Virus record (IMG/VR): IMGVR_UViG_2609460344_000022 | Length of the DNA: 40,873 nucleotides | Origin: a virus | Taxonomy: Duplodnaviria; Heunggongvirae; Uroviricota; Caudoviricetes | Strand: one strand, 5' to 3' | Shown here: positions 38,766 to 40,873 of the stretch, piece by piece | Layout: each line of letters begins with the position of its first letter | Position numbering within the stretch: position 1 is the stretch's first letter | The notes under the pieces: generated by a model | Database searches by the model: none | What the model was told of the DNA's origin: nothing | What the model saw: the letters and a program-made list of their open reading frames with translations, nothing else | Translations under genes and position numbers: made by a program

Positions 38766-40873
38766 GTGTTGTTGTTTCGGGGACGCTGAAATCTCCTGAT
38801 GGTGAGGCGATATCAGGAGCAAATATTACCCTGACGGCGCTGACAGTTTCACCGGATGCGCTCAGCGGCACCAGTGCGTCGGCAGTGACCCGTGAAGGTG
38901 GATATTACGGAATGACGATGGAACCGGGGGAGTATGCGGTTTCGGTGACGGTGAAAGGGAAGACTGCTGTCTACGGACGTGTGCGTATTGAGGGGACCGA
39001 AAGTACGGTGACGCTCAATATGCTGTTACGCCGCAGTCTTGTTGAGGTGAGCATACCCGGAGAACTGCTGACAGATTTCCGGCAGATACAGAATAATGTG
39101 GCTGATGACCTTGCCACTATTCGTCGCCTGAATGAAGACACGGCGACAAAAAACACTCAGGCCACACAGTCAAAAGACAGTGCAGCAGCCAGTGCGAAGA
39201 GTGCATCTGACAGTGCAAAGACGGCAACCAGCAGGGCGGCTGAAGCCGGACAAAAAGCCAGTGAAGCTGCAGAAGCAGCGACCCGGGCATGCGAGTCTGA
39301 AAAGGCCGCGGCAGCAGACGCGAATGATGCCAGACAACATGCTGAAACCGCCAGAGTGGCTCATGAGGCCGCCGGAGACGTTCTTAAACGTGCTGAGGCT
39401 GCTACGGTTAGTGCTGAAGAGGCCAGGCGTATGGCAGAGAATGCCAGAGGCCCTAAAGGTGATACCGGACCGAAAGGTGATGCAGGCCCTCGTGGAGAAA
39501 CAGGTCCACAAGGCGCACAAGGACCACGCGGTGAAACAGGACCGGTGGGGCCGCAAGGAGAGCGGGGGATTCAGGGGCCTGCTGGTCCACGAGGTGAAAC
39601 CGGGGCCAGAGGTGAAAAAGGAGCCCCCGGAGACCCGGGGGGACCACCCGGGCCGAAAGGTGATGCGGGACCTAAAGGTGACACCGGACCAGCCGGTCCC
39701 GCAGGTGAAAAAGGTGAGCCGGGAGAACGAGGGCCTCAGGGAGAGCAGGGGCTACGCGGACCTGCAGGAGAGAGAGGCCCGGCGGGGCCGCAGGGACCGA
39801 AAGGAGATGCCGGTGCGACAGGTCCGGCAGGTCCGAAAGGTGAACGAGGCGAAGCTGGGCCTGAGGGCCCCCGCGGGGAGCCTGGTCCGGCGGGCAGCGC
39901 AGCAAATGTGGTGGACGCGACGACGGCACAGAAGGGAATTGTGCAGCTAAGTAGTGATACTGCCAGTAATGACGAAACAAAGGCTGCCACGTCGAAGGCT
40001 GTGAAGGCGGCAATGGATGAGGCCAAGGCGGCGAGACAGAAGGCAGAAGAGGTTGCTGCAGGTGGTGGCGTTCCCGGCCCGAAGGGAGACAAGGGCGATA
40101 CGGGTCCGGCAGGCCCACAGGGACCGAAAGGGGATACGGGAGCCGCAGGCCCGGCAGGCGCACAGGGGCCAAAAGGTGACAAAGGCGATCCGGGGGTGGC
40201 TGGACCAGCAGGCCCGGCAGGCGCACAGGGGCCAAAAGGTGACAAAGGCGATCCGGGGGTGGCTGGACCAGCAGGCCCGGCAGGCGCACAGGGGCCAAAA
40301 GGTGACAAAGGCGATCCGGGGGTGGCTGGACCAGCAGGCCCGGCAGGCGCACAGGGGCCAAAAGGTGACAAAGGCGATCCGGGGGTGGCTGGACCAGCAG
40401 GCCCGGCAGGCGCACAGGGGCCAAAAGGTGACAAAGGCGATCCGGGGGTGGCTGGACCAGCAGGCCCGGCAGGCGCACAGGGGCCAAAAGGTGACAAAGG
40501 CGATCCGGGGGTGGCTGGACCAGCAGGTCCGGCAGGTGCGCCGGGGTCGAAAGGCGATAAAGGTGATCCGGGAGTGGCTGGACCAGCAGGTCCGGCGGGG
40601 CCACAGGGACCGAAGGGAGACACTGGAGCCCCCGGGCAAGGAACAGAACTGCTTACTACTGCCAATACATGGACTCAGGCACAAACTTTTAATGGTGGTA
40701 TTAATGGCAATTTGACGGTGACCGGAAACGGCTCATTTAACGATGTTCAGATCCGTTCGGATAAACGCAACAAGCGAAATCTGGTAAAACTGGATAATGC
40801 GTTAGATCGTCTGGAGGCACTTACTGGTTATCTTTACGAGATACAGTACTCTGCCGACGGTTGGCAAACGTCG
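38762..40873 (+). CDS. Side tail fibre protein with collagen-like (Gly-X-Y) domain; 3' end beyond window
   Basis: GTG start overlapping upstream stop; N-terminus '[22 protein letters not shown]' and '[10 protein letters not shown]...[15 protein letters not shown]' resemble lambda Stf; long GPKGD(T/K)G repeats; C-terminal '[24 protein letters not shown]' resembles S74 intramolecular chaperone start; no stop within window. Confidence 0.85.
40157..40540 (+). repeat. 63-bp tandem repeat (about 6 copies) encoding collagen-like 21-aa units
   Basis: 'ggcgcacaggggccaaaaggtgacaaaggcgatccgggggtggctggaccagcaggcccggca' repeats with period 63 starting at 40157, 40220, 40283, 40346, 40409, 40472; degenerate copy follows. 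Confidence 0.9.

Follow-up and report, generated by a model that had tools for sequence, protein, structure and literature searches.

Does a long array of perfect tandem repeats in a phage tail-fibre gene record a recent change in the length of the fibre, and if so, which part of the fibre was altered and with what expected consequence for the phage? This question is raised by a prophage sequence of 40,873 nucleotides (IMG/VR record IMGVR_UViG_2609460344_000022; referred to below as the window), in which an initial annotation, made from the letters alone, described a collagen-like tail fibre containing 63-bp repeats.

The collagen-like fibre and its place on the phage

The repeats occur in the last gene of the window (38762-40873, + strand), which begins with a GTG start codon and of which 704 codons are present. 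The draft contig JNRD01000031.1 (GCA_000704505.1) extends only a single base past the window, and for this reason the gene lacks its 3' end, amounting to about 58 codons. The 5' end of the gene overlaps by 4 bp the 3' end of the preceding gene (38115-38765, +), which encodes a phage adaptor protein (SU10_adaptor/DUF6682; Pfam PF24175, 112.6 bits) and whose counterpart in the complete genome cM8a is annotated as 'phage adaptor protein'.

The N-terminal fibre domain, presumed to be the virion-attachment end (38762-39118, +), is a carboxypeptidase-regulatory-like beta-sandwich, putatively of the PfN kind: it matched PF13620 (CarboxypepD_reg) with 35.0 bits, above the cut-off of 32.3, and PF08400 (phage_tail_N, PfN) with 20.0 bits against a cut-off of 26.6, in an alignment spanning 130 of 134 positions. 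It is followed by an Ala-rich low-complexity segment recognized by its composition (39119-39448, +; aa 120-229), the 'PCoil' of Ghosh 2012, with 33% Ala and 6.4% Leu, Val, Ile, Met and Phe over 110 aa. The first collagen-like domain (Col1; 39449-39898, +) is made of 22+28 Gly-X-Y triplets interrupted once, by G-D-P-G-G-P-P-G at aa 290-297, and the second (Col2; 40067-40642, +) of 64 uninterrupted triplets (192 aa). Between them lies a 56-aa non-collagen linker (39899-40066, +) composed of a Phage_fiber_2 (Pf2) repeat (PF03406, 53.8 bits, aa 387-428) and a short Ala/Lys/Glu-rich stretch. Pfam Collagen matched six stretches of the protein (173 bits), and this match, together with Phage_fiber_2 and the N-terminal fibre domain, bears out the description of the product as a collagen-like tail fibre. 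The Gly-X-Y region, which had been drawn as one extended domain (39440-40620), is indeed collagen-like, but it is divided by the linker into Col1 and Col2, and the repeat array is located inside Col2.

Distal to Col2, an alignment to the S16 gp37 fibre (PDB 6F45_A) delineates a 38-aa tip ending in NDVQIR (40643-40756, +), after which begins a Peptidase_S74 intramolecular chaperone (S666-D-K-R-N-K...; 40757-40873, +) that is cut off by the contig end. The truncated window protein scored 18.3 bits against the Peptidase_S74 profile (PF13884; cut-off 22), and the full-length relative L001 matched all 58 positions of this profile with 46.0 bits. The full-length relatives (L001 and L011) are 677 aa long and extend 58 codons past the window end; their C-terminal 114 aa match S16 gp37 (E = 4.4e-13), and the cleavage motifs are aligned, with the serine in an S-D-x-R-x-K context (NDVQIR/SDKRNKRN in the window, DLNVS/SDRRIKK in S16 gp37; slashes mark the cut). 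In S16, the last 113 residues of gp37 are an intramolecular chaperone that cuts itself off after trimerization, thereby exposing the docking surface for gp38 (PMC7917993). If the window protein cleaves itself likewise, as predicted, its mature form would end with the 38-aa tip.

In the relatives, the gene directly downstream of the fibre encodes a protein of 170-181 aa carrying a Gp38_N docking domain within its first 40 residues (PF21721; 71 bits each for L001 and L002; also listed for L011 and L080). This protein matches PDB 6F45_D at aa 1-44, and no sequence similarity to the polyglycine (PGII) sandwich of 6F45_D was found past residue 44. Both this gp38-like gene and the last 58 fibre codons lie outside the window, and we infer them from relatives that are 99.9-100% identical. 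Because the full-length relatives end in an S16 gp37-like tip and a self-cleaving chaperone, followed by a Gp38-docking gene, the array appears to belong to the fibre shaft and not to the receptor-binding end, with receptor binding most likely residing in the separate gp38-like tip protein. The likeness to the T2/S16 fibre tip (PDB 6F45) thus covers the C-terminal gp37 alignment with its cleavage motif, as well as a downstream gene that starts with Gp38_N and has conserved tryptophans in the relatives. It does not extend to the shaft, which is of the gp37 beta-structure type in T2/S16 and a collagen triple helix with a putative coiled coil here; nor to the virion, which is here that of a podovirus; nor to the remainder of gp38, whose polyglycine sandwich has no counterpart recognizable from the sequence of the 170-aa gp38-like protein.

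The DNA relatives of the prophage are short-tailed Stx phages and Stx-like prophages. Neither stx nor tRNA genes lie between its Q gene and its esterase gene. It is an stx-negative, short-tailed phage of the 933W/Sp5 type. Collagen-like fibres of such phages were described as the EPcl proteins of EHEC prophages, which assemble as trimers into collagen triple helices, have Col domains differing in length by multiples of three from one prophage to another, and contain a GxPGGPxG-type Col interruption; 933W Z1483/L0121 and Sp5 ECs1228/ORF67 are EPclB/EPclD examples (Ghosh et al. 2012, PMC3368898). The Sp5 homologue of the fibre, ORF67, is essential and was localized to the tail end by immuno-EM (PMC5155283). 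The window protein shares with EPclB the module order of an N-terminal fibre domain (PfN in EPclB, putatively so here), Ala-rich PCoil, Col with GxPGGPxG, Pf2 and a second Col, and its gene sits, as in the EPcl-bearing Stx-type phages, after the adaptor gene of short-tailed phages. However, whereas EPclB has a PfC domain (PF06820) at its C-terminus, neither the window protein nor full-length L001 has a match to PF06820, and the C-terminus is instead Peptidase_S74, as in EPclD-type Shigella proteins; the window fibre is for this reason better described, from its domain composition, as an EPclB/EPclD hybrid than as a strict EPclB. Its Col2 measures 192 aa as compared with 114 aa in 933W/Sp5, and the extra length takes the form of five DNA-identical 21-aa blocks, a run absent from all relatives examined. 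The fibre family and its variable collagen length have accordingly been known since 2012, and the expanded array is a new allele.

Structure of the repeat array

The sequence is periodic at 63 bp without a single mismatch over 383 bp (40145-40527). In codon register, six units of 63 bp occupy 40157-40534 (+), confirming the six near-perfect repeats of the initial annotation: five of them are DNA-identical (type A, 40157-40471), a type present once in the relatives, and the sixth (B, 40472-40534) equals A except for a synonymous C>T at 40528 and is also found in the relatives. A seventh unit (D, 40535-40597, +), again shared with the relatives, is an old copy that has diverged from type A at 11 of 63 nt and 2 of 21 aa. 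Tandem Repeats Finder delimited the array to 40145-40622 (period 63, 7.6 copies, 95% matches, score 830). Among 500 shuffles of the codons of the collagen region, the longest perfect period-63 run had a mean of 6.5 and was at most 13, as compared with 320 in the actual sequence.

Each unit encodes 21 aa, that is, seven Gly-X-Y triplets, and the majority of the nucleotide differences between A and D (8/11) fall in synonymous codons, a pattern that points to protein-coding constraint. A CRISPR-like or regulatory repeat can be ruled out, because the differences between units are mostly synonymous and because no spacers separate the units, which are joined head to tail, in frame, within an uninterrupted ORF.

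Copy number among related prophages

The most direct comparison is with the contig JNRC01000005.1 (GCA_000704485.1, L011), an assembly of neighbouring accession in which the fibre is complete (677 aa) and the array has three units. Once four units are deleted from the window's contig, the two show zero mismatches over the 9,071 bp compared, such that assemblies otherwise 100% identical carry three and seven units, respectively. The same prophage, located beside ynfG and colinear with the window, is present in cM8a, also with three units. Its array is exactly 252 bp (four units) shorter than that of the window, and the remaining differences are substitutions only, at least 31 of which are listed, up to position 39834, with the last 477 nt matching exactly. 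The array thus reads A-B-D in these relatives and A-A-A-A-A-B-D in the window, and of three near-identical proteins, that of the window has 64 Col2 triplets, that of the closest relatives 36 and that of the O104:H4 Stx2 phage 22.

We counted tandem units in 49 arrays from fetched loci, a set that includes the window's own contig and in which some loci represent the same contig or locus fetched twice. One unit was found in 15 arrays, two in 24, three in eight and four in one, with seven in the window only. This contradicts invariance of copy number across relatives, the observation that the initial annotation had named as speaking against its reading. The window is also the only array with DNA-identical units; in the 48 related arrays, all units within an array differ from one another.

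Wider searches returned no comparable allele. Neither an exact A-A dimer nor an A-A-A trimer occurred in IMG/VR, the GTDB species representatives or the JGI metagenomes, and no intermediate allele (A-A-B-D and the like) was found in the loci and collections searched. Among the matches listed for 5,426 complete E. coli genomes and 50,697 phage records, the longest covers about 232 bp on the record side; copy number in these BLAST searches was gauged by the span on the record, since query coverage joins one stretch to several parts of the query. In a protein search with the C-terminal 325 aa, the best 120 hits, mostly partial proteins among which the known 677-aa relatives are missing, had at most two tandem units.

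The common alleles, for their part, look stable. The three-unit A-B-D form was observed in eight arrays of the fetched loci (some being the same contig or locus twice) and was read directly in cM8a and NMBU-W12E19, which are both complete genomes; 23CRST047 and 23CRST049, likewise complete, were compared by match span, which agrees (730 bp). All 16 O104:H4 genomes have one common match span, and the one that was read directly (L002) has a single unit. The proposal that such repeats are prone to expansion and contraction therefore holds in so far as copy number differs among relatives, but the locus is not visibly hypervariable, given that the A-B-D form recurs. Depending on the IMG/VR relative, the collagen domain adjoining this tip has as few as 9 or as many as 69 triplets. 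Another unit, of 15 aa, is present in three copies in some IMG/VR fibres (L035, L070) and in two in others that are otherwise identical (L041-L046), indicating that gain and loss of sub-repeats is general in this domain. The seven-unit allele is thus probably a private and recent expansion, or else an assembly miscount.

Origin of the expanded array and its predicted effect

We consider it likely that the array arose by a recent in-frame tandem amplification within Col2 of the trimeric fibre of this stx-negative 933W/Sp5-type phage, an event that would have lengthened the fibre shaft. The ancestral array would have had the three units A-B-D that are retained by the closest relatives. Out-of-register pairing of A with the nearly identical B could then have led to the gain of four A units, yielding A-A-A-A-A-B-D, either by replication slippage or by unequal recombination, possibly aided by the Bet/Exo/RecE functions of the prophage; crossovers before unit position 57 (56/63 of the unit) would generate an A-type unit. 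As 63 bp correspond to 21 codons and seven triplets, the reading frame and the triple-helix register would be kept at every gain or loss, and changes in unit number should be tolerated because both are preserved. More generally, length changes in multiples of 9 bp would keep frame and helix register and should be structurally tolerated.

Alternatively, the seven units could be an artefact of assembly, either because the source isolate truly has the three-unit A-B-D array and the A loop was traversed too many times, or because the other assembly was collapsed from an equal count. The seven-unit allele is seen in a single draft contig, in a fragmented assembly and a repeat-rich region; the window, which extends 339 bp past the array, falls one base short of the contig end; and the perfectly periodic block is, at 383 bp, too long for short reads to span. 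In addition, the assembly of neighbouring accession is otherwise identical, and the A-A dimer is absent from the other collections searched. Nevertheless, assemblers collapse tandem repeats more commonly than they inflate them, and a true A-B-D array would give the A-type k-mer loop single-copy coverage, which would lend no support to five passes. The structure of the allele also fits misalignment between A and B, as only A-type units were gained and B and D were kept at the 3' end. Taken together, we regard a miscount as unlikely, though it deserves to be kept in mind. By comparison, an ON/OFF contingency locus, in which slippage would switch fibre expression by frameshifting, can be virtually dismissed: its sole support is the occurrence of a perfect tandem repeat inside a gene for a surface structure, and a 63-bp unit of 21 codons never shifts the frame, with every observed allele being in frame.

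If the array is a genuine amplification, its effect on the fibre can be estimated. The collagen helix rises by about 0.29 nm per residue, from which we computed about 6 nm per unit and a Col2 length of about 55 nm in the window, about 31 nm in the near-identical relatives and 19 nm in the O104:H4 phage. The four extra units would thus make the shaft about 24 nm longer. After trimerization, the S74 chaperone is predicted to cut itself at R665/S666; cleavage would expose the gp37-like tip, on which the small Gp38-docking protein would sit. The expected consequence is a tip adhesin with longer reach or more flexibility and with unchanged specificity. Because the array is in the shaft and the tip is separate, an effect on reach or adsorption kinetics seems likelier than one on host specificity, a change of host range being the less likely of the two, and the suggestion in the initial annotation that fibre length could alter host range is weakened.

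Whether such changes in length are themselves adaptive is a separate matter. Copy number might change rapidly within populations and so tune adsorption or host range, for example by adjusting reach through O-antigen or capsule of varying thickness. The number of shaft repeats in the adenovirus fibre, which is also trimeric, sets the distance from capsid to knob and reportedly affects infectivity; that shaft folds as a triple beta-spiral, comes from a eukaryotic virus and has no homology to the fibre studied here. The VNTR-type proteins BclA of Bacillus anthracis and Lcl of Legionella have in common with the window fibre a Gly-X-Y region encoded by tandem DNA repeats, a strain-specific copy number and a trimeric filament. 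Their copy number sets filament length, which for the window fibre is a prediction, and they differ from it in being cellular surface proteins and not parts of a virion, and in that their polymorphism is widespread in populations, whereas the expanded allele here was observed once. Sylvestre (2003), cited in PMC10470788, reportedly links the triplet number of BclA to filament length. Among such precedents for a functional role of repeat number, the triplet number of the BclA collagen-like region is strain-specific (PMC10470788), binding by Lcl correlates with the number of GXY repeats (PMC6460258), and an 81-nt deletion in the collagen-like repeats of the Guarani virophage accompanied an expansion of its host range (PMC7242381).

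The difference in copy number between two otherwise identical prophage copies, and the range of 9-69 triplets in the terminal collagen domain of relatives, are in line with such a role. The stability of the common alleles argues against it, with A-B-D recurring in cM8a and NMBU-W12E19 and the 16 O104:H4 genomes sharing one match span, as does the mutual divergence of units within the arrays of relatives, which implies slow turnover there; moreover, receptor binding probably takes place in the separate gp38-like adhesin. We therefore find an adaptive length switch distinctly improbable. Still more doubtful is the fullest version of this idea, in which the expansion is real, arose between two isolates whose assemblies are otherwise identical over the 9 kb compared, and makes of the array, with its five identical units, a fast 'length rheostat' on which selection could act for adhesin reach through surface layers.

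Under the amplification reading that we favour, the value of the locus depends on the seven-unit allele being real. In that case, the two assemblies represent a clean natural pair: one prophage, without any further difference in 9 kb, bearing fibre shafts for which a length difference of about 24 nm is predicted. With such a pair, the influence of collagen-shaft length on adsorption could be tested directly in the family of phages responsible for the spread of Shiga toxin genes. The locus also carries a practical warning, namely that this fibre gene breaks draft assemblies and that a repeat count obtained from short reads is untrustworthy. Beyond the pair and the warning, the array contributes one more allele to a length polymorphism known since 2012.

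A related caution applies to gene prediction, as G+C-rich repeats yield long false ORFs on both strands. The spurious off-frame ORFs to which the initial annotation had drawn attention are real in this sense, and five long ones were found: 39672-40604 (-), 39736-40665 (-), 39947-40684 (-), 40017-40715 (+) and 39132-39950 (+). They arise because stop codons are nearly absent from five of the six frames of the collagen region, which is 70% G+C and contains 0-2 stop codons in each of these frames.

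The gene downstream of the fibre

The window ends at position 40873, inside the collagen-like tail-fibre gene (38762-40873, plus strand) and one base short of the end of draft contig JNRD01000031.1. Its left end (position 1) falls exactly at the stop codon that closes the integrase gene (1-1164, minus strand). The window resembles a provirus call of which one side was cut back to a gene boundary and the other was cut short where the contig breaks. Just past the window end, the next gene codes for a protein of 170 aa, as seen in three related loci (L001, 3990-4502; L010, from the complete genome cM8a, 5375-5887, minus strand; and L011, from JNRC01000005.1, 9330-9842). 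Residues 1 to 40-44 of this protein correspond to Gp38_N, the docking domain of the T2/S16 adhesins. The remaining ~125 residues had no Pfam match and no similarity to the polyglycine sandwich of the adhesin of Salmonella phage S16. The 170-aa protein may be an undescribed adhesin head carried on a podovirus collagen fibre.

Rearranged collagen domains in related fibres

The fibre carries two Gly-X-Y domains, Col1 and Col2, separated by a Phage_fiber_2 linker. In an IMG/VR relative (L065, 812-2866) this linker is lost, and three 21-aa units, identical in protein but divergent in DNA, are followed by a duplicate of a large part of Col1, giving a single collagen domain of 69 triplets. The arrangement is evidence that collagen domains recombine with one another. 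A second sub-repeat of Col2, a 15-aa (45-bp) unit, is present in three copies in two IMG/VR relatives (L035 and L070) as compared with two copies in L041-L046; these fibres are otherwise identical, the difference lying at about residues 514-560. In a further relative (L075), a variant of the 15-aa unit forms a run of approximately five copies.

Phage family and accessory genes

The prophage belongs to the family of short-tailed Stx phages and is itself stx-negative. No stx or tRNA genes were found between its Q antiterminator gene (22874-23407) and SASA/DUF6645 esterase gene (24173-26083), that is, across window 22874-26083; L084, a relative whose portal protein is the same, carries stxA and stxB at the corresponding site. 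In cM8a, the integration site of the prophage is adjoined by ynfG. The accessory cargo, following the cM8a annotation, comprises a Ser/Thr protein kinase (9098-10144, minus strand), an LPS core heptose(II)-phosphate phosphatase located between the lysis and terminase genes (28380-28994, minus strand), and toxin-antitoxin genes at about 17500-18800 (RelE/ParE with an HTH partner, a Doc/Fic toxin and HokD). Of the 31 substitutions listed relative to cM8a, a lower bound on their total, eight fall within 115 bp of the portal gene (32317-32431), a cluster that resembles a small patch of recombination. A perfect 16-bp direct repeat, ATGTGCAGTCACACCA, present in 2.1 copies (12690-12722), lies just upstream of a replication-region gene (12809-13891).
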